Of a stretch of 64,000 bases of DNA, positions 43,367-58,879 are shown piece by piece. The stretch lies in assembly GCA_043825735.1 (NCBI GenBank), contig JBDRRP010000064.1, forward strand, positions 1 to 64,000. Reading direction: 5' to 3'. The notes under the pieces were generated by a model that saw only the letters and a program-made list of their open reading frames with translations, did no database searches and was not told the DNA's origin. The stretch's first letter is position 1. Each line of letters starts with the position of its first letter. Made by a program: the position numbers and the translations under genes. Source of the DNA: Pseudomonadota bacterium. Lineage in GTDB: Bacteria; Desulfobacterota; Desulfobacteria; Desulfobacterales; JBDRRP01.

Positions 43367-43417
43367 ATTACTTTGGCTAATCATACAGAATACACAAAAA
43401 CCCATTTAGGGTCGGGA

Positions 43418-46075
43418 ATGACACCACAACAAGCTATAATAGCACCGCTCAATGCGAAAGCGCCCACGGAATTGGCTCAGCATCGATCCCTACTGGTGGC
43501 ATCATTTCTATCCGGGGATACGTCTGGCTTCCTTCAAAAATGCGCCCGCCAGCTGGATGATTATTTTCGTGAAAGCTTTGCCGAAAGCATGATCGGCCCC
43601 CGCATCGGTCTTACCCGAAACCCCTATGCCATTATCGCACTGGGGGGCTACGGCCGGGAGGAACAATGCGCGCACTCTGACGTTGACCTGCTGTTTTTAT
43701 TTGACCGCCAGGTCCCTCCGGCAGCCGAAGAATTGATCCGCGAAGTGGTCTACCCGCTCTGGGATATCGGGCTGGAGGTGGGGCATGCCACCCGATCTTT
43801 CAAAGAGTGCATGGCCCTGGCATCCAAAGACTACGAGGTACTCACCTCCGTGCTGGATGCCCGGTTCATCTGCGGCGTCTCTCCGCTTTACACCAAACTG
43901 ACAGAGCACCTGAGACAAAAACTCCTCGCGCGCCAGTCGCGGAAAATCATCGACTGGCTCATCGAAACCAATACCCTGCGTCATGAGCGCTTCGGTGACT
44001 CGGCCTATTTGTTGGAACCCAATCTCAAAGAAGGCTGCGGCGGCCTCAGGGATTACCATACGATGCTGTGGATCGCCCGGATCCGGGCAGGGATCAAGCA
44101 ACCCCGGGATCTTGAATACCTGGGGCTCCTTTCTCACGAAGAATACACGCGTCTTTCCGGCGCCCTCGAATTCATCTGGCAGGTGCGAAACCACCTGCAT
44201 ATCAGGGCCGCTCGCAAATGCGACCAACTCCAGTTTGATCATCAGACCGCCATCGCCGATATCATGGGTTTTACGGCCCAGAACGACCAGCAGCCAGTCG
44301 AACGGTTTCTGGGACGGCTCCACAGACACATGGAAACCCTTAAACTGCAGCACCTCATGTTTCTCTATGAAATGGGGCACGTGAAATCGCGGCGTTTTCT
44401 CAGAAAACGGCAGAAACACACCGCGGTGGAAGGTCTCACCATCGCAGGAGACAATATTCTGCAGTTCGTATCGCCGGAAGCCATCCGTGACAACCCGAAA
44501 CGGCTGATCTGGATTTTCGAAGAAAGCGCCCGGTTGAAAATTCCACTGGGCACCGAAGCCAAACGACTGGTGCGCGATTTCGGAGAACGCGTCGATGAGG
44601 CGTTTCGTACCGACCCGGAAGTCATCCAATCATTTGAACGCATCCTTGCCACACCGGTCCCTGAATTCAACGTACTCAACGAGATGCACAACACCGGTTT
44701 TCTCTTTAACCTGATACCGGAAATGAAGGCCATCGAAGACCGCATCCAATATGACGAGTACCACCTGTTTCCGGTCGACAAACACTCGCTGCGTGCGGTT
44801 CAGACCCTTAAAACCTTCGGCACCCCGGAAAGCCTGGCCAAAGACCCCCTGTGCGACACCATCTACAAAGAGCTCAAGCACCGCAAGCGACTCCTGTGGG
44901 CCACGCTGCTTCACGACATCGGCAAAGGTGTGCCCGGTGGCGGTCACTCGGAAAAAGGGGCGGCCATCGTCACCGACCTGATGACGCGACGAGGCTACAA
45001 CACCACGGACATCGACACGGTCACTTTTCTGGTCCGCCAGCACCTGCTGCTGGTGAAAGTGGCTACCCGGCGGGATATCAACGATGAGGAAACCGCCATC
45101 GTCTGCGCGCGGACCATCAAGAGTGTGGACCGCCTCAAAATGCTCTACCTGCTCAGCGTCGCAGACTCTATTGCTACAGGCCCCAAAGCATGGAATGCCT
45201 GGATGTCTGCACTGATCAGGGCGCTCTTTTTAAAAGTGCTCAACATTCTTGAAAACGGGGAGCTGGCCAGCCAGGAGACGATGAAATCCCTGGAGCGCAA
45301 GAAAAACTATATTGCGGATACCGCTACGACACCGGAAGAACGCGCCGACATTGAGCGGTTATTATCGGTCATGTCGCCGCGATATCTCATCTATGCCGAC
45401 CCCGGTCAAATGGCAGATCACATTCGCCTTCACCGCGAGCTGGGTGACCGGGATTTTGTCTGGCAGGTCGACCGCTCCAGCGGTGTCGGCACCCGGACGG
45501 TGACGGTCTGCGCGAAGGACCGCCCTGGCCTGTTTTCAAAAATCGCCGGTGTGTTCACCCTCCACAACATCAACATCCTGGACGTCCAGGTCTTCACCTG
45601 GCGAAACAACGTTGCACTGGACATTTTTGAGGTCGACCCGCCGCCGGACCCCATCTTTGAATACGAGCGATGGGCCAAGGCGGAAAAGAGTCTGGCAGAT
45701 GCCTTGGCAGGACGACTCGATTTGGCAACGGCACTGACTGAAACCCTCAGCCAGCGCATTCCGCGCCTGCCGGCAGCCATGGATCGACCGCTGCGGGTGA
45801 CCATCAACAATGACAGCTCGAGTTTTTTTACGATCATCGAAGTCTTCGCCAACGATTTCCCGGGATTGCTGTTCACCATCACCGACGCGCTGTTCCGGTG
45901 TCGACTGGATGTCTGGGTGGCCAAGATCGCCACACGGGTGGATCAGGTCGTAGATGTCTTCTACGTGAGGGATTTCGATGGGCAAAAAGTCGACGCTCCG
46001 GAGCAGGTAGCTTCCATTAGAACCATTATTGAAGAAGTCCTTGGTGGTGCGGCCATGCGACCCGGCCGGGCGTGA
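43418..46075 (+). CDS. glnD: PII uridylyltransferase/uridylyl-removing enzyme
   Basis: ALGGYGR..SDVDL, LEPNLKEG.GGLRD, HD domain LLHDIGKG and two ACT domains. ATG 43418 is preferred because it lies downstream of the sigma54 promoter. Confidence 0.93.
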   Translation: MTPQQAIIAPLNAKAPTELAQHRSLLVASFLSGDTSGFLQKCARQLDDYFRESFAESMIGPRIGLTRNPYAIIALGGYGREEQCAHSDVDLLFLFDRQVPPAAEELIREVVYPLWDIGLEVGHATRSFKECMALASKDYEVLTSVLDARFICGVSPLYTKLTEHLRQKLLARQSRKIIDWLIETNTLRHERFGDSAYLLEPNLKEGCGGLRDYHTMLWIARIRAGIKQPRDLEYLGLLSHEEYTRLSGALEFIWQVRNHLHIRAARKCDQLQFDHQTAIADIMGFTAQNDQQPVERFLGRLHRHMETLKLQHLMFLYEMGHVKSRRFLRKRQKHTAVEGLTIAGDNILQFVSPEAIRDNPKRLIWIFEESARLKIPLGTEAKRLVRDFGERVDEAFRTDPEVIQSFERILATPVPEFNVLNEMHNTGFLFNLIPEMKAIEDRIQYDEYHLFPVDKHSLRAVQTLKTFGTPESLAKDPLCDTIYKELKHRKRLLWATLLHDIGKGVPGGGHSEKGAAIVTDLMTRRGYNTTDIDTVTFLVRQHLLLVKVATRRDINDEETAIVCARTIKSVDRLKMLYLLSVADSIATGPKAWNAWMSALIRALFLKVLNILENGELASQETMKSLERKKNYIADTATTPEERADIERLLSVMSPRYLIYADPGQMADHIRLHRELGDRDFVWQVDRSSGVGTRTVTVCAKDRPGLFSKIAGVFTLHNINILDVQVFTWRNNVALDIFEVDPPPDPIFEYERWAKAEKSLADALAGRLDLATALTETLSQRIPRLPAAMDRPLRVTINNDSSSFFTIIEVFANDFPGLLFTITDALFRCRLDVWVAKIATRVDQVVDVFYVRDFDGQKVDAPEQVASIRTIIEEVLGGAAMRPGRA

Positions 46076-46146
46076 GCGCTCCACCTATAAAAGAAACCTG
46101 CCGCGATTTCACCCGCGGTAAAAACAATGGAAAGGTAGCTTGTGAT

Positions 46147-47816
<1,670 letters not shown>

Positions 47817-47882
47817 GAACAGAAGCGATAACCATGTTTATGGATCACGTTAATTTTACATTAGGTTAAAGGAGGCATGCAC

Positions 47883-49295
47883 ATGACACCCGAACAAGTA
47901 TTAGATTTTGCAAAGGAAAACGGCGCCAAGACGGTCGATATCCGGTTCATGGACTTCCCGGGCATCTGGCAGCATTTCACTGTCCCCGTGAACGAGCTGG
48001 AGGCGGGCTCCTTCGACGACGGGTTCGGCTTCGACGGCTCCAGTATCCGGGGCTGGCAGCCCATCAACGCCAGCGACATGCTGGTGGTCCCCGACCCCAC
48101 TACCGCTGTCATGGATCCCTTCTTCGAAGTCCCCACCCTGGTGCTCATCGGCAACATCGTCGATCCCATCACCCGGGAGTCCTATTCCCGGGATCCCCGT
48201 CATATCGCCCAAAAAGCGGAAGCCTACCTTAAAAACACCGGCATCGGCGATACCGCGTACTTCGGCCCCGAGGCCGAGTTCTTCATTTTCGACGATATCC
48301 GTTTCGAGTCTAGTACCAATGGGGCTTTCTATGCCATCGACTCGGTGGAGGCCGCCTGGAACACCGGCAGGGACGAGTGCCCCAATCTGGGCTACAAGAC
48401 CCGCCACAAGGAAGGCTATGTTCCGGTGCCGCCCACCGACAAGTTCCAGGATTTGCGCACCGAAATGATGCTGACCCTGGAGAAGATCGGCATCGCCGTC
48501 GAACGCCAGCACCACGAGGTGGCCACCGCCGGACAGGCCGAAATCGACATGCGCTTCAAATCGCTGGTGCAGATGGGCGATCAGCTCGTGTGGTTCAAGT
48601 ATATTCTCAAGAACGTGGCCAACCGAGCCGGCCATACGGTCACCTTCATGCCCAAACCGTTGTACGGGGACAACGGCACCGGCATGCACACGCACATCAG
48701 CATCTGGAAGGATGGAAACCCGCTGTTCGCCGGTGACAAATACGCCGGTGTCTCCCAGATGGCCCTCTGGGCCATCGGCGGCATCCTCAAGCACTGCAAG
48801 GCCATCTGCGCCATCACCAACCCCACCACCAACAGCTACAAGCGTCTGGTACCGGGCTTCGAGGCGCCGGTGAATCTCGCCTACTCCAGCCGGAACCGCA
48901 GCGCGGCCATCCGCATTCCCATGTACTCCCCCTCGCCCAAGGCCAAACGGATCGAATTCCGCACGCCCGATCCGTCGTGCAATGGCTACATCGCATTTGC
49001 CGCAATGCTCATGGCCGCCATCGACGGCATCGAAAACAAGATCGACCCGGGCGATCCGCTGGACAAGAACATCTACGATCTGCCGCCTGAAGAGCTTGCC
49101 GGCATCCCCTCGGCACCGGGCTCCCTGGAAGAGGCCCTCGCCGCCCTGAAAGAAGACCATGAGTTCCTGCTCAAGGGCGATGTCTTCACCAAGGATGTCA
49201 TCGACATGTGGATCGACTACAAGACGGAAAATGAAGTCAACCCGGTCCGGCTGCGCCCGCATCCCCACGAGTTCTTCCTCTACTACGATATTTAA
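47883..49295 (+). CDS. glnA: Glutamine synthetase type I
   Basis: [48 protein letters not shown] and the adenylylation site NIYDLPP. Confidence 0.97.
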
Positions 49296-50773: not shown

Positions 50774-51238
50774 TTACCCTTTGGGGATAAGCCGAATCAT
50801 GGATCGCTCGAACGCCAGTCGCCGCGTCTCGTCAGAGATTTCCCTGGCAAGGTTGACGATAAGATCAGGCGCACGACTTATGGGAATGGTGTTCGCGTCG
50901 AGTCCCATCTCGGCTGCGATATCTTCCACGAGAAACTCGCCGATGGGGCCGACCGCACTGGTAATATGGTTGCGCAGTTCCGCCAGAAATTGTTTATCAA
51001 GCACCGGCCCTCCCATCGCAACGGATTCGATGAGACCGATATCCAGCAGCTTGCCCAAAGTCTGCCGCAGTGCGGCCATGTTCATACCGACTTCGGCAGC
51101 GACCTGGGCAACCGTCTTTCGTTCATCAATGGCCATTAGCAGCCGGACCATGCCGGCGTCCATGGATACCTCCCCCTGGTTCTGGTGAATTGATTTTCGA
51201 AAGTACATGTTGGGTAGATCTGGAGAATGTATATCCAT
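50774..51238 (-). CDS. Hypothetical protein with a winged-HTH-like segment and helical C-terminal domain (154 aa)
   Basis: Start ATG 51238 with GGAGG RBS; LL.AID..KTVAQVA..GM...L..TL.KL...GLIE and AVGPIGEFLVED. Confidence 0.75.
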   Translation of the reverse strand: MDIHSPDLPNMYFRKSIHQNQGEVSMDAGMVRLLMAIDERKTVAQVAAEVGMNMAALRQTLGKLLDIGLIESVAMGGPVLDKQFLAELRNHITSAVGPIGEFLVEDIAAEMGLDANTIPISRAPDLIVNLAREISDETRRLAFERSMIRLIPKG

Positions 51239-51512: not shown

Positions 51513-51541
51513 TTGACTTTCAATCAGAGAGTCCATAGGGT
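51513..51541 (+). promoter_or_regulatory. sigma70-type promoter of the aro operon leader
   Basis: TTGACT-N17-TAGGGT. Confidence 0.65.
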
Positions 51542-51566
51542 GGCCGTCGAAAGGAAATTATATCCG

Positions 51567-51644
51567 ATGGAACAGTGCTTTTCCAGCAGCAACTATTATT
51601 ATTTCAGCTATTATTTTCAGGCCGTTCTGCCTGGGATGCGCTGA
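51567..51644 (+). CDS. Tyr/Phe-rich attenuator leader peptide MEQCFSSSNYYYFSYYFQAVLPGMR
   Basis: AAAGGA RBS at 51550-51555. 25 codons including 5 Tyr and 3 Phe, directly upstream of terminator hairpins and DAHP synthase. Confidence 0.88.
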   Translation: MEQCFSSSNYYYFSYYFQAVLPGMR

Positions 51645-51671
51645 CCGTCACAATCTGACATAAAAGTGCTT

Positions 51672-51711
51672 AAGCCGCGGGCAGAACCAAACGCCCTGCG
51701 GCTTTTTTTTT
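51672..51711 (+). terminator. Attenuator terminator 1
   Basis: AAGCCGCGGGC...GCCCTGCGGCTT followed by a T9 run. The left arm can alternatively pair with GTTCTGCCTG (51624-51633) in the leader. Confidence 0.88.
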
Positions 51712-51716
51712 CTCCG

Positions 51717-51751
51717 GGCCGCGGGCGTCGACAGACACCGCGGCCTTTTTT
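51717..51751 (+). terminator. Attenuator terminator 2
   Basis: GGCCGCGG...CCGCGGCC followed by T6. Confidence 0.8.
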
Positions 51752-51816
51752 CAGCATATCGGCCATTTCGGCCCGATTAACGCCCATCCCGGAGAAAAAA
51801 TTAAGGAAACAGCGGA

Positions 51817-52899
51817 ATGAAAGAGACACAGGATCTTCGCGTAAAGGGGTACCGGCCGCTCATGACACCGGCCGCTTTGAAAGAAAAGATGCCGCGCCCC
51901 CCGGAGGCATCGGAAACGGTGATCACCGGCCGCAAACAGATCGAACAGGTGCTTCGAGGCCAGGATCGACGCCTGATTGTCGTGGTAGGGCCCTGCTCCA
52001 TTCACGATCCGGTTGCCGCTCTGGACTATGCCCGGAGGCTCGACCGATTGCGCCGTGAGGTGGCACAGACAATCATTGTGGTCATGCGGGTGTATTTTGA
52101 AAAACCGCGTACCACCATCGGCTGGAAGGGGCTTATCAACGATCCTCGCCTGGATGGGTCCTGCGACATGGAGGAAGGGTTGAAAAATGCCCGCGGCCTC
52201 CTGCTGGACATCGTGGGCATGGGGCTGCCAACAGCCACCGAGATGCTCGACCCCATCACGCCCCAGTATGTCGCCGATCTCGTAAGTTGGTCGGCCATCG
52301 GCGCACGCACCACCGAATCCCAGACCCACCGGGAGATGGCCAGCGGCCTGTCCATGCCAGTCGGGTTTAAAAACGGCACCGACGGTAACCTCAAATCGCC
52401 GATTAACGCTATTCTGGCCTCCCGGGCACCCCAGGGGTTTTTAGGAATCGACCAGCAAGGGCGCACCAGTATTGTCCAAACCAGCGGAAACCCCTTCGGT
52501 CACCTGGTGGTCCGTGGCGGGGCCCGGCCCAATTATGATGCCATCAGTATTGAATCAGCACGAATGAGTCTGATAGAAAAAGGGCTGCCGGAGCTGATCA
52601 TGGTTGACTGCTCTCACGCCAACTCCATGAAAAAGCACCAGGGGCAGGCAATCGTCTGGCGAAACGTGTTGGAGCAGCGGGTTCATGGCGACGAAACCAT
52701 CATCGGCATGATGCTGGAGAGCAACCTGTTCGAGGGCAACCAGAAATTCACCGGCGATATGAAACAGTTGAAATACGGCGTATCGATCACCGATGAGTGC
52801 ATCTCCTGGGAGTCAACGGAAACGCTGCTCAGGGAGGCCCACGAAAAACTGTCACCGTGCCTTGGCCTTGCCGGCGGCCAAAGGAAGATAAGCGCTTAA
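51817..52899 (+). CDS. aroF: DAHP synthase, class I-alpha (AroF/G/H type)
   Basis: [38 protein letters not shown] and YGVSITD.C. The isoenzyme symbol is tentative. Confidence 0.93.
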
Positions 52900-53051: not shown

Positions 53052-53912
53052 ATGGAACCAACGAGCATAACATCGAAAACCCGGCTTTACGCCGTGATCG
53101 GCAACCCGGTGGCCCATAGTCTGAGCCCTCTCATGCACAACACGGCGTTTGGCCAACTATGCATCGATGCCGTATATTTGGCATTTGAGGTCGCCGATGT
53201 GGCGGCGGCGGTATCAGGCATCCGTGCCATGGGCATCCAGGGGCTGAGCGTGACCATTCCCCACAAGATCGCCATCATGGATCACCTCGACGAAGTCAGT
53301 CCGGAAGCCCGCGTCATCGGGGCCGTTAATACCATCATCAACCGAAATGGACGTCTCTTCGGCGACAATTCCGACGGTCGTGGTGCCGTGGCTGCCCTGA
53401 AGCGACACACCAGATTGAAGGGACGGCACCTCACCATCCTCGGCGCCGGCGGAGCGGCCCGGGCGGTGGCATTTGCAGCTGCAGCCGAAGGCAGCCGGGT
53501 GACCATCGTCAACCGAACACCATCCACTGGTGAGGCGCTGGCATGCGCCGTCGGCGGCCGCTATCGTCCCCTCACCGACGCGTATATCGGCGACTGTGAT
53601 ATCCTGGTGAACACGACACCGGTGGGGATGACGCCTCACGATAGCGTCAGCCCCGTTTCTTCATCGGCATTAAACCCCGCCATGATCGTCATGGATGCGG
53701 TGTATTCGCCGCTGGATACACGCCTGCTGCAGGACGCACGCCGCGCCGGGTGCCACACCATCGACGGACTGGACATGTTCGTCGAGCAGGGGGTGCTCCA
53801 GTGTGAATGGTGGACCGGACACCGCGCGCCGGCCCCCCTCATGAAATCGACCGTGGCCACCGCCTTGATGCGCCGCCAGACAAAACAGACTGGAGAAAAA
53901 TCCAATGGCTGA
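53052..53912 (+). CDS. aroE: Shikimate dehydrogenase
   Basis: HSLSP.MHN, VTIPHK, GAVNT, GAGGAA, NTTP.GM and GLDM.V.QG. Confidence 0.95.
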   Translation: MEPTSITSKTRLYAVIGNPVAHSLSPLMHNTAFGQLCIDAVYLAFEVADVAAAVSGIRAMGIQGLSVTIPHKIAIMDHLDEVSPEARVIGAVNTIINRNGRLFGDNSDGRGAVAALKRHTRLKGRHLTILGAGGAARAVAFAAAAEGSRVTIVNRTPSTGEALACAVGGRYRPLTDAYIGDCDILVNTTPVGMTPHDSVSPVSSSALNPAMIVMDAVYSPLDTRLLQDARRAGCHTIDGLDMFVEQGVLQCEWWTGHRAPAPLMKSTVATALMRRQTKQTGEKSNG

Positions 53913-55191
53913 AACACCTTGGCGTAACATCCGCCCGCTGACAAGGAGACCATCGCCCGTTTCAGTGTCTGTTCCGGGATCAAAAAGCTGCACGCACCGG
54001 ATGCTGATCGCTGCGGCCCTGTCCAACGGCGCGTGCCGCGTGTTTAACCCTCTGGACAGCGACGATACGCAGCTGACCCGCCAGGCACTGGGGCAGATGG
54101 GTGCGGTAATCACCGGGACAGACCCCCTGCACATCACCGGCACCGGCGGCACCTGGACGGCCGCCAGGGAGGCCATCTATCTTGGCAATTCGGGTACGTC
54201 CATGCGTCTTCTGGCCGGGCTGACCGCCCTGGGTGACGGAGTGTATCGACTCACCGGAAGCCCGCGCATGTGCGAGCGTCCCATCCAGGACCTGCTGGAC
54301 GGGCTTGCCCAGATCGGCGTCCCGGCCCGCAGCGTGGCGGGTACCGGCTGCCCCCCGGTGGACATCACTGGCGGGGTGACCTTTGGGGGCCGCACGCGGC
54401 TGCGCTGCCGGGACAGCAGTCAGTACCTCAGCGCCATGATGCTTATGGCCCCGTGCACCCGCGACGGTCTTGACATTACGGTCACTGAAGGTCCCGTATC
54501 GAAGCCCTATATCGATCTGACCATTGACATCATGCGGCAGTTTGGCATCACACTGTCACACGAGCATTACACTGCATTTCACATCCCCGGAGCCCAGCAA
54601 TACCAGTGCGGAACGTATTACGTGGAACCTGACAGCTCCCAGGCCGGTTATTTCTGGGCCGCCGGCGCCATCACCGGCGCCAGCATCACCGTTTCCGGCA
54701 TCCACCGCACTTCCCGGCAAGGAGACACGGGGTTTTGCGACATCCTGTCGCAGATGGGATGCACCGTTTCTGATGGCGCCGCTGGGATCACGGTCACCGG
54801 GGGACGGCTCACCGGCATATCTGTGGACATGGGGGCAATGCCGGACATGGTGCCCACACTGGCGGTGGTGGCGGCATACGCCGAGGGCATCACGGACATT
54901 GGCAACGTCCGCCATTTACGGATCAAGGAAAGCGACCGCTTGGAAGCCGTCGCCTGTGAACTGCGTCGCATGGGCGTTCGGGTGGAGACCCGCGATGATG
55001 GACTGCGCATCCATGGGGGGGGGCCTCAGGCTGCCGATATCCAAACCTATGACGATCACCGGATGGCCATGAGTTTTGCCGTAGCAGGGCTGCGCACACC
55101 GGGCGTGCGCATCGGCGATCCGAGCTGCGTAAACAAAAGTTTCCCCAATTTCTGGAAGGTTTTCGACAGGCTTTACGGGGAGGCGGCGTGA
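53905..55191 (+). CDS. aroA: EPSP synthase
   Basis: PGSKS, GNSGT.MR, SSQY.SA, R.KESDR, DDHRMAM and KSFP.F. Confidence 0.96.
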   Translation: MAETPWRNIRPLTRRPSPVSVSVPGSKSCTHRMLIAAALSNGACRVFNPLDSDDTQLTRQALGQMGAVITGTDPLHITGTGGTWTAAREAIYLGNSGTSMRLLAGLTALGDGVYRLTGSPRMCERPIQDLLDGLAQIGVPARSVAGTGCPPVDITGGVTFGGRTRLRCRDSSQYLSAMMLMAPCTRDGLDITVTEGPVSKPYIDLTIDIMRQFGITLSHEHYTAFHIPGAQQYQCGTYYVEPDSSQAGYFWAAGAITGASITVSGIHRTSRQGDTGFCDILSQMGCTVSDGAAGITVTGGRLTGISVDMGAMPDMVPTLAVVAAYAEGITDIGNVRHLRIKESDRLEAVACELRRMGVRVETRDDGLRIHGGGPQAADIQTYDDHRMAMSFAVAGLRTPGVRIGDPSCVNKSFPNFWKVFDRLYGEAA

Positions 55192-55841
55192 GCCCTCATA
55201 GCCACCCCTGCAGACGGCCCCTGCCGCCGGGCAACCTCTATCTCGTTGGGTACCGGTGCACGGGTAAAACCAGCATTGGCCTCAGACTGGCGCAACGGTT
55301 GAATCGGGTATTCGTTGACTGCGATCAGCGGGTGACGACCACTGCCGGAATGACCGTCACCGATATCGTGTCTCGTGAGGGGTGGGCCGGTTTCCGGCAG
55401 CGGGAATGCCGTGTTCTGAAGGACATCGCACGCACCGAAAACAGGGTAGTGGCCACCGGCGGAGGTATTGTTGGCGACGTTGCCAATCGGTGGAATATGC
55501 GTCGCAGCGGCATCGTTGTCTGGCTGACTGCCTCGGTGCCGGTCATTGCCGCCCGCATGACGGCCGATCCAATAACCGGCGACCAGCGGCCCGCCTTGAG
55601 CCAGGCCCCCCTGGAAAAAGAGATTGTCCAGACACTGACCGCTCGCATCCCGCTGTATGCCAACACCGCGCATTTTCATGTAATCACCGACAACCGGTCC
55701 TTTGAAGGCATCTGCGACGAGATCCTGCACCGCCTGACCGCAAGGATCGCCCGTTGTGAAAAGCGTTTTGAACCGCGGCGTTCTCTGCGTCTCTGCGCGA
55801 GAACCCGTTTTGGGTTGCGGCAAAGCCGAGCGATGCCTTAA
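55188..55841 (+). CDS. aroK: Shikimate kinase (C-terminus extended by a repeat)
   Basis: GYRCTGKT, D.D, GW..FR..E, ATGGG and RP.L...R.PLY. Confidence 0.9.
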   Translation: MSPHSHPCRRPLPPGNLYLVGYRCTGKTSIGLRLAQRLNRVFVDCDQRVTTTAGMTVTDIVSREGWAGFRQRECRVLKDIARTENRVVATGGGIVGDVANRWNMRRSGIVVWLTASVPVIAARMTADPITGDQRPALSQAPLEKEIVQTLTARIPLYANTAHFHVITDNRSFEGICDEILHRLTARIARCEKRFEPRRSLRLCARTRFGLRQSRAMP

Positions 55842-55875: not shown

Positions 55876-56955
55876 ATGTCCAGCACCTTCGGCACCCTTT
55901 TTCGGGTCACCACCTTTGGCGAGTCCCACTGCAAGGGCGTCGGCGTTGTCGTTGACGGATGCCCGCCACGATTGGCCCTGACCGAATCCGACATCCAGCG
56001 TCAGTTGGACCGTCGGCGTCCCGGCCAAAGCAGCCTGTCCACCGACCGGCAGGAGTCCGACACGGTGACCATTCTCTCCGGCACGGAAAACGGGCTCACG
56101 CTGGGAACCCCCATCGCGCTGATGGTCCCCAACAAGGACCAGCGCCCCGGCGACTACAGCGATATGGCCGCCATCCCCCGCCCCTCCCATGCCGATTTTA
56201 CCTATCAGCTCAAATACGGCATTCGCGCCGGCAGCGGTGGCGGACGATCCAGCGCCCGGGAGACCATCGGCCGGGTGGCCGCCGGTGCCATCGCTGAAAA
56301 GATCCTGCGAGAGCGCTATCAGACGGAAATCATAGCCTGGGTCGACAGCGTGGGCGCCATCGACGGCCCGCCGGTGAATACGGACAGCATCAGCCGGGAT
56401 ATCGTAGATCGCCAGATCGTGCGATGCCCGGACGGCCCTACCGCCCGGAAGATGGCTGATCTGATCGCTGAAACCAAAGCCCAGAAAGATTCCATCGGGG
56501 GCGTCGTGGCCTGCGTCTGCCGAGGCGTGCCGCGGGGCCTCGGAGAGCCGGTCTTCGACAAGCTCGAAGCCAAGCTGGCACAGGCCATGCTGTCCATTCC
56601 GGCGACCAAGGGGTTTGAAATCGGCTCCGGGTTTGCCGGCACACGGATGCGGGGCTCTGACCATAACGACCCGTTCGTAGCCAAGGCCGGCGGACTTGGA
56701 ACCGCCAGCAACAACAGCGGCGGCGTTCAAGGCGGCATCTCCAACGGCGAGCCGATCCTTTTTCGCGTGGCGTTCAAACCGGTGGCCACCATCGGCCGTG
56801 CCCAGCAGACCGTGGACTTCGACGGGCGGCCGGTGACCCTGGCGGCCAGCGGCCGTCACGATCCGTGCGTGCTGCCCCGGGCCGTGCCAATTGTGGAGAG
56901 CATGGCCGCACTGGTGTTGCTGGATTTGGCCCTGCGGCAGGAGGCGCGGCGATGA
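55876..56955 (+). CDS. aroC: Chorismate synthase
   Basis: TFGESH, RRRPGQ, PRPSHAD, RSSARET, GGISNG and GRHDPC..PRA. Confidence 0.97.
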
Positions 56956-58088
56956 GACCGGTTTCTCAGCGCGTGAGCAGGGTGACCCCGTCCCAGACCA
57001 CCGCGTTCACAGCACTCGTGGCTGCAGAGCGCCTGAAGGGACGCGAGATTATCGACCTGGCCGTGGGGGAATACCCAGGGCCGGCACCGGCCGCGGTCAT
57101 TGCCGCCACCCAGGCAGCCCTGGCCGAAGGCCGGTACCGCTACGGGCCGGTAGCCGGCCTGCCGGCGCTACGAGACGCGCTGGCCCGCCGCTACCCCGGC
57201 ACTGGCGCCGATAATGTCATCATCACCAACGGCGCCAAGCAAGCCCTTTTTCATATCTTCCAAGCCCTATGCGACCCCGGGGCGGAAGTCATCATTCCCA
57301 CCCCATGCTGGGTGAGTTTCCCCCAGATGGTGCGCCTGGCTGGCGGCCATCCGGTCATGGTCCCCTGTGACCGTCGCCATCAGCCGGACATCGAAGGAAT
57401 CCGCAGTGCCGTTTCCGAGAGGACCTGCGCCATTCTGGTCAACTCTCCCAACAATCCCACCGGGGCCGTCTATCCTGAGGCGGCAATGGTCGCGCTGATG
57501 GAAATCGCCCGCACTGAAGGGCTCACCCTGATCAGCGACGAAACTTATGCCGAATTGGTCTATGACGATTGCCGTCACAGCAGCGTTGCGTCGCTGACCG
57601 GCAGCGCCGACCACGTGATTCTGGTCGGCAGTTTTTCCAAGTCCTTTACCATGACCGGCTTTCGCGTTGGCTATGCCATCGCGCCGGCCCCGGTCATCAC
57701 GGCAATGACCGTCATCCAAAGCCATGCCTGCGGCAATGTGTGCACCTTCGCCCAATATGGCGCCCTGGCGGCCATGGAACTGCCCGAGGCAAGCCGACGG
57801 GAGCTGCGCGCGACACTGGCCGCCAACCGCGATGTCGCCCTGGAAATAATCGGCAACGTGCTGCCATGCACACCCCCTCAAGGGGCGTTTTACCTCTTTC
57901 CAGAGATTTCAAGCCACCTGCGCCCAGGCGCATCGGCCAGCGACTTTTGCACCGACATGCTGCGCCTGGCGGCGGTGGCGCTGGTGCCCGGAGAGGCGTT
58001 CGGCGTGCACAACCACATCCGCATCTCATTCGCCGTTGACGGCGACGATCTGCGCGAAGGACTTGGAAGGATGATGGCCCACCTATGA
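56952..58088 (+). CDS. Class I PLP aminotransferase (aspartate/prephenate aminotransferase-like)
   Basis: [18 protein letters not shown] and SFSK...[11 protein letters not shown]-coupled to aroC. Confidence 0.9.
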
Positions 58089-58879
58089 TTGGACTGATTG
58101 GATTCGGGCGTTTCGGACGATTGACAGCGCGGTATCTGGCCTGCGATCTGGACGTATATGTTTACAACCGCAGCGGCAAAGAAAACGCCATTGCTGCGGT
58201 GGGGGCTGTCGCTGCGGATCTGAAGACGGTCTGCGCCCAGCCCCTGGTGGTGCTGTGCGTGCCCATCTCACGAATGCGGGAGACGCTCCGTGCCATTGCG
58301 CACCGGCTGGCGCCCTCGGCGGTGGTAGTGGATGTGTGTTCGGTGAAAACCCTTCCGGTGCAATGGATGCGCGACATTCTGCCCACCGAGGTGTCGATCC
58401 TGGCCACGCACCCCATGTTCGGGCCTGACAGCGCTGCCGATTCACTCGTCGAAAAAAAGATCGTCCTATGCCCGACAAGGATCTCCCAAAAGCGCTACGC
58501 CTGTATCCGGGACTACCTCGCCGGCAAGGGCCTGGTACTCATGGAGACCACCCCCGAAGCCCATGATCGGCAGATCGCCATCACCCTGGCGCTGACCCAT
58601 TTTATCGGTCGCAGCCTTTCCAAATTCGGCGCTCCGGCGCTGGACATCGACACGGAGGGGTACAAGCGGCTGCGTCACATTCTGGGCGTGGTGGAAAATG
58701 ATAGCTGGGAGTTATTTCAAGACATGCACGGCTACAATCCTTTTGCCGCGCAGACCCGGCGGGCTTTCGTGTCCGCCATGTCGGATATCGAAGCGGAACT
58801 GACTCAAAATGAAAACGCCCCGGCCAAACGGGCCGGAGCGCTGCCGTCAGTATCCCCGATAATAACGGACACGGATTAG
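58085..58879 (+). CDS. tyrA: Prephenate/arogenate dehydrogenase
   Basis: GLIGFGRFG, DVCSVK, HPMFGP and HD..IA....LTH. Confidence 0.9.
   Translation: MIGLIGFGRFGRLTARYLACDLDVYVYNRSGKENAIAAVGAVAADLKTVCAQPLVVLCVPISRMRETLRAIAHRLAPSAVVVDVCSVKTLPVQWMRDILPTEVSILATHPMFGPDSAADSLVEKKIVLCPTRISQKRYACIRDYLAGKGLVLMETTPEAHDRQIAITLALTHFIGRSLSKFGAPALDIDTEGYKRLRHILGVVENDSWELFQDMHGYNPFAAQTRRAFVSAMSDIEAELTQNENAPAKRAGALPSVSPIITDTD

Follow-up and report, generated by a model that had tools for sequence, protein, structure and literature searches.

We found that positions 51513-51751, upstream of an aro-tyrA operon in the 64,000-nt stretch of DNA analysed here (the window), almost certainly encode a classical ribosome-mediated attenuator, as judged from the sequence. 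The full model, in which two working terminators are joined by a relay hairpin and the leader senses both Tyr and Phe, is probably correct as well; it draws on the sequence and on analogy with known systems.

The leader and the operon behind it

The predicted elements of the attenuator all lie on the forward strand:

51513..51541, +, predicted sigma-70-type promoter (-35 box TTGACT at 51513-18, 17-nt spacer, weak -10 box TAGGGT at 51536-41)
51551..51555, +, Shine-Dalgarno-like AAGGA of the leader ORF, called from sequence, 11 nt before the ATG
51567..51644, +, leader ORF of 25 codons; control codons Tyr10-12, Phe13, Tyr15-16 and Phe17 at 51594-51617
51566..51593, +, segment 1 (protector or pause arm), the partner of segment 2
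51624..51635, +, segment 2, the 5' arm of antiterminator 2:3, within the last leader codons
51672..51711, +, terminator 1 (3:4), with segment 3 at 51672-87 (also used by 2:3), segment 4 at 51693-704 and a T9 tract at 51703-11
51693..51726, +, relay hairpin 4:5 (51693-704 with 51716-26), which excludes both 3:4 and 5:6
51716..51751, +, terminator 2 (5:6), with segment 5 at 51716-26, segment 6 at 51738-46 and a T6 tract at 51746-51

The promoter TTGACT-N17-TAGGGT and the ribosome-binding site proposed in a first-pass annotation of this DNA are both present, with a -10 box that matches the consensus at only 3 of 6 positions. A scan for consensus promoters and terminators listed neither this promoter nor terminators 1 and 2, the latter because their loops are larger than its pattern. 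In 124 of 133 homologous leaders, the 140 nt upstream of the leader start contain a -35 box of the form TTGAC(A/C/T), and the promoter prediction depends on this conservation. GGA-type motifs at a similar distance from the start codon were seen by eye in most of the homologues displayed.

The 25-codon ORF and its NYYYFSYYF motif (codons 9-17) also proved to be as first described. Codons 10-17 read Tyr-Tyr-Tyr-Phe-Ser-Tyr-Tyr-Phe, that is five Tyr and two Phe in eight codons, and among 37,253 short ATG ORFs of the genome the leader ORF is the only one with at least 7 Tyr/Phe per 8 codons. We compared the folding energy of each helix with 200 shuffles. Antiterminator 2:3, which contains the proposed pairing of 51624-33 with 51678-87, reaches -29.2 kcal/mol (z -4.7, 0/200 shuffles), terminator 1 -19.1 kcal/mol (z -3.8, 0/200), terminator 2 -23.9 kcal/mol (z -4.8, 0/200) and the relay hairpin -18.9 kcal/mol (z -2.3, 7/200). 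The T9 and T6 tracts had been placed correctly, as had the 9-mer of segment 3 (51674-82) that is repeated exactly in segment 5 (51718-26). Folding additionally revealed helix 1:2 (51566-93 with 51624-49; -26.7 kcal/mol, z -2.9, 2/200), which the first-pass annotation lacked. At the level of sequence, the ORF, its codon bias and four helices are established.

Several other features of the region were considered. A perfect 13-bp inverted repeat (51706-18 / 51788-800) encloses terminator 2 and ends just before the aroF ribosome-binding site; it is strongest in this genome and relatives do not share it in register, and we left it out of the model. A mobile or repeated element was rejected, since BLAST and a covariance model each find a single copy in the genome. 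At gathering score, Rfam has no match at this stretch or at 10 homologous loci (Phe_leader, Trp_leader and His_leader included), and around the leader it returned only two chance-level matches (E ~8).

Seven genes follow the leader on the same strand:

51817..52899, +, aroF, DAHP synthase class I-alpha (TIGR00034, 480 bits)
53052..53912, +, aroE, shikimate dehydrogenase (TIGR00507)
53905..55191, +, aroA, EPSP synthase (TIGR01356)
55188..55841, +, shikimate kinase, aroK/aroL (NF002988)
55876..56955, +, aroC, chorismate synthase (TIGR00033)
56952..58088, +, aspartate-aminotransferase-like PLP enzyme (class I/II aminotransferase models, mostly under cut-off)
58085..58879, +, tyrA-like prephenate/arogenate dehydrogenase (NF006409, E 7.5e-36, below cut-off)

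By its context, the product of 56952..58088 would be a prephenate or aromatic aminotransferase. The first-pass annotation spoke of a whole shikimate-to-tyrosine operon. The series aroF-aroE-aroA-aroK-aroC-aminotransferase-tyrA is indeed there, but aroB, type II dehydroquinase (aroQ) and prephenate dehydratase (pheA) lie on other contigs of the genome, and the operon covers most, not all, of the aromatic pathway. No aromatic-rich short ORF precedes the genome's pheA, aroB, aroQ (a locus cut by a contig end) or second aroF. The latter encodes a class I-alpha DAHP synthase that is 51% identical (G000:C9:28114-29190, L026). A search for the TrpR family gave no match in the genome. Further upstream in the window, genes for an ammonium transporter, P-II and glutamine synthetase stand consecutively on the forward strand (46072-49295), preceded by a long ORF (43373-46075) that we take to resemble glnD. 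A 138-aa ORF on the reverse strand (50774-51190) is divergent from the aro promoter; it matches no NCBIfam or Pfam model at the thresholds applied and possibly encodes a small regulator.

Predicted switching of the two terminators

In the model that we favour, the six segments would gauge how much charged tRNA-Tyr and tRNA-Phe is available. With both tRNAs in good supply, the ribosome would pass codons 10-17 and mask segment 2 down to the stop codon; with segment 2 masked, 3:4 would form and polymerase would stop at T9. Polymerases that leak through would find segment 4 already taken, hence 5:6 would form and impose a second stop at T6. When either tRNA is short, the ribosome would halt on segment 1 at codons 10-16, 2:3 would form before segment 4 exists, and terminator 1 would fail. 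Segment 4, left free, would then pair with segment 5 some 20 nt before segment 6 emerges, so that terminator 2 would fail too and the operon would be transcribed. One upstream decision would in this way set both stops, which would lower basal leak and barely reduce induced output. On the trp, phe and his model, we expect the leader to be translated, the ribosome to stall, transcription to end at either tract, the helices to fold in this order and the dynamic range to widen; that the leader senses Tyr is likewise inferred.

Stalling had been proposed to let segment 4 pair with segment 5 and thereby disable both terminators. This holds for terminator 2 in our model, but 4:5 cannot act on terminator 1, since polymerase reaches segment 5 only once it has passed the T9 tract. 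The related proposal that stalling at Tyr/Phe codons allows 2:3 pairing was examined in a snapshot of the transcript before segment 4: P(2:3) is ~1 as long as the ribosome stands no further than codon 16, 0.35 at Phe17 and 0 from codon 18. Stalls as far as about codon 16 would therefore free segment 2, but Phe17 would do so only in part. At the same stage and with no ribosome, 2:3 beats 1:2 (0.999).

Folding with ribosome-footprint constraints, a check suggested by the first-pass annotation, switches in this snapshot, but at full-length equilibrium the RNA never leaves the terminated state; the terminators win at every ribosome position, and the highest P(2:3) is 0.28. Applied to E. coli leaders, the equilibrium test failed for trpL and hisL and worked for pheL. 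We therefore count it as uninformative rather than refuting, because the calibration failed for two of three known E. coli attenuators.

For the relay, we forced 2:3 in the 70 homologous loci that have both terminators (described below). With segment 5 out, 4:5 forms in 70/70. Once segment 6 is complete, 4:5 wins in 40/70 loci and 5:6 in 29; at this locus, 4:5 stands at 0.54 to 0.97, depending on the stretch folded. Because 4:5 wins in only 40/70 once segment 6 is complete, the relay would need kinetic trapping and the switch would depend on the order of folding. The 29 loci in which 5:6 prevails at equilibrium speak for a reading in which only a four-segment attenuator is at work and 4:5 is a by-product of duplication; the second hairpin would then be a copied terminator, a constitutive stop of low strength or a hairpin that affects RNA stability. 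The exact 9-nt repeat of segment 3 in segment 5 points the same way. We consider this reading unlikely in view of the comparisons given below. Translational control by terminator 2 was rejected, as 22 nt or more separate the end of the hairpin from the aligned aroF start in 70/70 double loci. No RNA contig over 51543-51823 was found among four metatranscriptomes, one of which holds a small share of its words; such contigs are silent on transcript ends and levels.

Distribution of the leader family and comparative tests of the relay

A search of the order with AroF matched 141 of 401 genomes at E <=1e-130, yielding 142 loci for analysis (set A; the better of two aroF copies was taken at one locus, and weaker hits were omitted). 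An aromatic-rich leader with terminator 1 is present at 133 of the 142 orthologous loci. Among the nine leaderless loci, one is a second aroF copy inside a leader-bearing operon, and in one genome the leader lies further upstream, before a chorismate mutase-prephenate dehydratase gene. Terminator 2 occurs in 70/133 leaders by a strict criterion, which overlooks a few cases evident by eye.

In 105/133, the distance from the end of the leader stop codon to the segment-2 anchor is 15 nt. Alignment A1 comprises 58 of the 133 leaders, at most three per family, with irregular or mis-anchored leaders excluded. Helix 2:3 has 92.9% of cells paired and two-sided changes in 6/10 pairs (0/500 shuffles on paired cells), and 1:2 reaches -21.3 in the homologues vs -12.0 for shuffled 5' parts, both shuffle tests disregarding kinship. 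The attenuator reading of the first-pass annotation is thus borne out by a conserved aromatic run, a fixed spacing to segment 2 and covariation in 2:3; the alignment of related aroF leaders that it had recommended finds covariation in 4:5 as well as in 2:3. Sequence comparison establishes selection on both helices.

A covariance model of the leader has one copy in this genome, matches in 137/151 genomes of the order and matches in 75/151 genomes of the phylum (weak matches partly inspected). An AroF scan of named genomes, mostly with distant homologues, found the leader in 5/80, all of them in records titled as deltaproteobacterial (e.g. Desulfococcaceae, Desulfobacter); these five were kept out of the statistics. 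Besides aroF, the leader precedes genes for ADH synthase and DAHP synthase I-beta as well as aroK, aroD, aroA, aroE and chorismate mutase-prephenate dehydratase (pheA), and on predicted gene content it tracks the aromatic pathway, not one gene. We assembled a second set (set B) of 124 out of 149 loci, mostly before other genes, after dropping 7 without a leader and 18 with failed anchoring. ADH synthase, recognised by its N-terminal motif, is downstream at 81 of the 124.

The family includes a number of variants. Phe-rich versions stand before genes for periplasmic binding proteins (PF13458 in the three scanned) and before a phenylacetate-CoA ligase-like (PaaK-like) gene (L278, L281, L289, L388, L383); Phe or a similar compound may be what the binding proteins help to import. 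Locus L396 carries four consecutive Trp codons and two terminators on the same scaffold, before a TrpB-like gene. Two complete aromatic leader ORFs in series, each with its own hairpin, are found in three families (L288, L294 and L299 of f97; L277, L283 and L287 of f104; L279 of f90), and such serial ORFs are a second route to double control. At L013, L159, L183 and L009 the leader ORF ends right behind the aromatic run and the downstream RNA segments are retained, so that segment 2 is non-coding there.

The 133 aroF leaders contain on average 4.7 Tyr, 3.3 Phe and 0.5 Trp codons, and all synonymous aromatic codons are in use (TAT 479, TAC 140, TTT 351, TTC 86, TGG 73). The same RNA switch might be controlled by a single amino acid, Phe or Tyr, or the peptide might arrest the ribosome in response to a free amino acid; TnaC is an arrest peptide of this type. 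An arrest peptide would fit a C-terminal GLPxVR-like tail that looks conserved within the order. However, the Leu codon before Pro is CTG in 97/101 leaders within the order, and the segment-2 motif is in a different reading frame in 24/44 cases found outside it. Selection is therefore on the RNA rather than on the peptide tail, and this use of codons and frames makes an arrest peptide unlikely. Control by one amino acid has a precedent in the Corynebacterium aroR leader, which answers to Phe and not to Tyr according to the available part of its description (PMC11802643). Against it, Tyr codons outnumber Phe codons per leader, and codon make-up follows the target, with Phe-rich runs before periplasmic binding proteins and PaaK and a Trp run before the TrpB-like gene. 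We regard single-amino-acid control or an arrest peptide as very unlikely.

Segments 3 and 5 are alike, so a certain amount of 4:5 pairing would arise from their similarity alone. Our control was 3:6, a pairing that mere duplication would favour equally and that no model uses. In set A, 4:5 has -15.9 kcal/mol vs -11.3 kcal/mol for 3:6, and is the stronger in 61/70 loci and in 20/20 families; permuting partners with one locus per family gives a median z of -3.9 for 4:5 vs 0.05 for 3:6. In an independent MAFFT alignment (A2) of 69 of the 70 double loci, 4:5 is 95.3% paired (0/500) vs 82.9% (313/500) for 3:6. In the second set, 4:5 beats 3:6 in 70/75 loci and 43/47 families, with one-per-family z values of -6.8 vs -1.8. 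The first-pass annotation had made the relay hinge on conservation of 4:5, and the helix surpasses its symmetric control in both locus sets. A single-column independent-pairs test was underpowered, with only 5 supported pairs (p 0.25).

These results speak against the duplication reading introduced above, which predicts that 3:6 is as favoured as 4:5. So do the inner stem positions, at which segment 5 pairs better with segment 4 than with its own partner (Watson-Crick in 64 vs 47 of 70 loci at position +3, and 56 vs 34 at +4), and several clades on the tree in which a change in segment 4 that breaks 3:4 is compensated in segment 5. In favour of that reading, the second hairpin is missing in 63/133 leaders, and its presence changes state 16 times on the AroF tree (gain and loss not told apart). 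The U-tail after 5:6 is also weaker, with a mean of 5.8 T of 8 vs 6.5. Terminator 2 is dispensable, because 63/133 aroF leaders are without it by the rule used.

Twelve of the 75 second-set loci have a 3:4 hairpin with 3 or fewer T in its tail and keep 2:3, 4:5 and a U-tailed 5:6. They all precede ADH synthase (L280, L286, L292, L301, L302, L304, L344, L357, L358, L373, L374, L379). On the ADH synthase tree, the loss of the first U-tract takes 4 changes, at least 2 of which are forced by well-supported branches. Since their first hairpin is without a U-tract, these loci could switch only through the relay, which also counts against duplication as the sole origin of 4:5. That all 12 carry terminator 2 is partly a detection effect, as a U-less leader lacking it would score poorly.

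The same 12 relatives lend some weight to a different reading, in which the relay is real and 3:4 is mainly a his-type intermediate hairpin, with nearly all termination at 5:6. In keeping with it, 3:4 is less stable in double leaders than in single ones (-15.9 vs -17.5 kcal/mol, p 0.0008), has a mismatch at +2 in 21/70 double vs 2/63 single leaders, and is followed by 6.5 T in double vs 7.0 T in single leaders. At this locus, however, 3:4 has -19.1 kcal/mol and a T9 tail. At least 5 T of 8 follow 3:4 in 70/70 double aroF leaders, a figure partly imposed by the way terminator 1 was detected, and 63 of the 75 second-set loci keep the tail at a cut-off of more than 3 T. We regard a mainly intermediate role for 3:4 as very unlikely here, and retain the model with two working terminators.

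Relation to known attenuators and significance

The leader shares the defining features of classical trpL/pheL/hisL-type attenuators. A short ORF with a ribosome-binding site precedes a biosynthetic operon, codons for pathway end products are clustered (7 Tyr/Phe in 8), and 1:2, 2:3 and 3:4 are mutually exclusive, with a U-tract after the terminator. In snapshot folding, a stall frees segment 2 and a ribosome at the stop codon covers it, whereas full-length equilibrium folding gives no switch. Like E. coli pheL-pheA and trpL, the leader has a cognate codon run in segment 1, competing 2:3 and 3:4 helices and a U-tract; unlike them, each with one amino acid and one terminator, it has two predicted terminators and would sense two amino acids.

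The six-segment layout, with 1:2, 3:4 and 5:6 opposed to 2:3 and 4:5 and an extra pair that relays to the distal terminator, resembles hisL, onto which we presume the segments map one by one. In E. coli and Salmonella hisL, the extra hairpin between the pause hairpin and the terminator has been proposed to minimise basal read-through (PMC1183508). The part of that source available to us calls only the last hairpin a terminator, whereas the middle hairpin here carries T9. The his layout itself is seen in the 12 relatives that lack the first U-tract.

A close counterpart is the aroR leader of Corynebacterium glutamicum (Neshat et al. 2014, PMID 24910972), which likewise places Phe and Tyr codons before a DAHP synthase (aroF) operon. 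As far as the accessible parts of its descriptions go, it encodes Phe-Tyr-Phe, its attenuation was tested with no Tyr effect, and a double terminator is not mentioned (PMC11802643, PMC4046766). In the present leader, by contrast, the eight control codons include seven aromatic ones, five of them Tyr; aroR belongs to another phylum. Short upstream ORFs or attenuators with a terminator have also been predicted before aroF in other lineages, as the uORFC-13-1 motif of Acholeplasma (PMC8632094) and an aroF leader attenuator of Shewanella (PMC2659441). The excerpts of these reports that we could consult give a Phe run only for Acholeplasma and describe no second terminator or relay. Tandem terminators and an antiterminator share one 5' leader in gammaproteobacterial rimP (PMC2965389); its stems carry inverse motifs rather than near-copies, and the available part of that report mentions neither a leader peptide nor amino-acid sensing. 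Desulfobacterium autotrophicum potentially uses pheL before pheA, according to an excerpt of a pheL survey (PMC3082878). This pheL may be a member of the present family, because the family leader also precedes chorismate mutase-prephenate dehydratase genes.

The first-pass annotation did not recognise the design as described. We found no precedent for the coupled terminators, but Phe/Tyr aroF leaders and extra-hairpin relays are each precedented. Lopatovskaya et al. 2010 is said to be a survey of attenuators in delta-proteobacteria. Our literature searches turned up no account of the leader family, nor of a leader-peptide attenuator with coupled terminators; that survey and Vitreschak et al. 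2004 may list members. The coupled double terminator, kept across the whole order, seems to be undescribed. The principle of ribosome-mediated attenuation, the Phe/Tyr aroF leader and the extra hairpin of the his leader were already known; new are the coupled terminator pair, the signature of selection on it, and the presence in one uncatalogued family of forms with one terminator, with two, and with a his-like layout.

More broadly, we lean towards a joint reading in which this is an uncatalogued, phylum-wide family of aromatic leaders with three working forms: one with a single terminator, as in trp; one with two terminators coupled via 4:5, as at this locus; and one resembling his, whose first hairpin serves as a relay only, its U-tract having been lost on at least two independent occasions. 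These leaders would truly sense tRNA-Tyr, and would have moved between three unrelated pathway entry enzymes and been re-tuned by codon content. If so, the three forms would be a living series in which a six-segment attenuator arises from a four-segment one.

The leader family is one that Rfam lacks, and its natural variants make two matters testable: tyrosine sensing by ribosome-mediated attenuation, which failed in Corynebacterium aroR, and the role of the his-type extra hairpin. If the full model is right, one stalling event would switch two intrinsic terminators in series, a compact way to reduce leak without a repressor and a ready part for wide-range synthetic switches. It would also fill a gap by accounting for the control of aromatic amino-acid synthesis in most of the genomes sampled from this sulfate-reducing-type deltaproteobacterial order.
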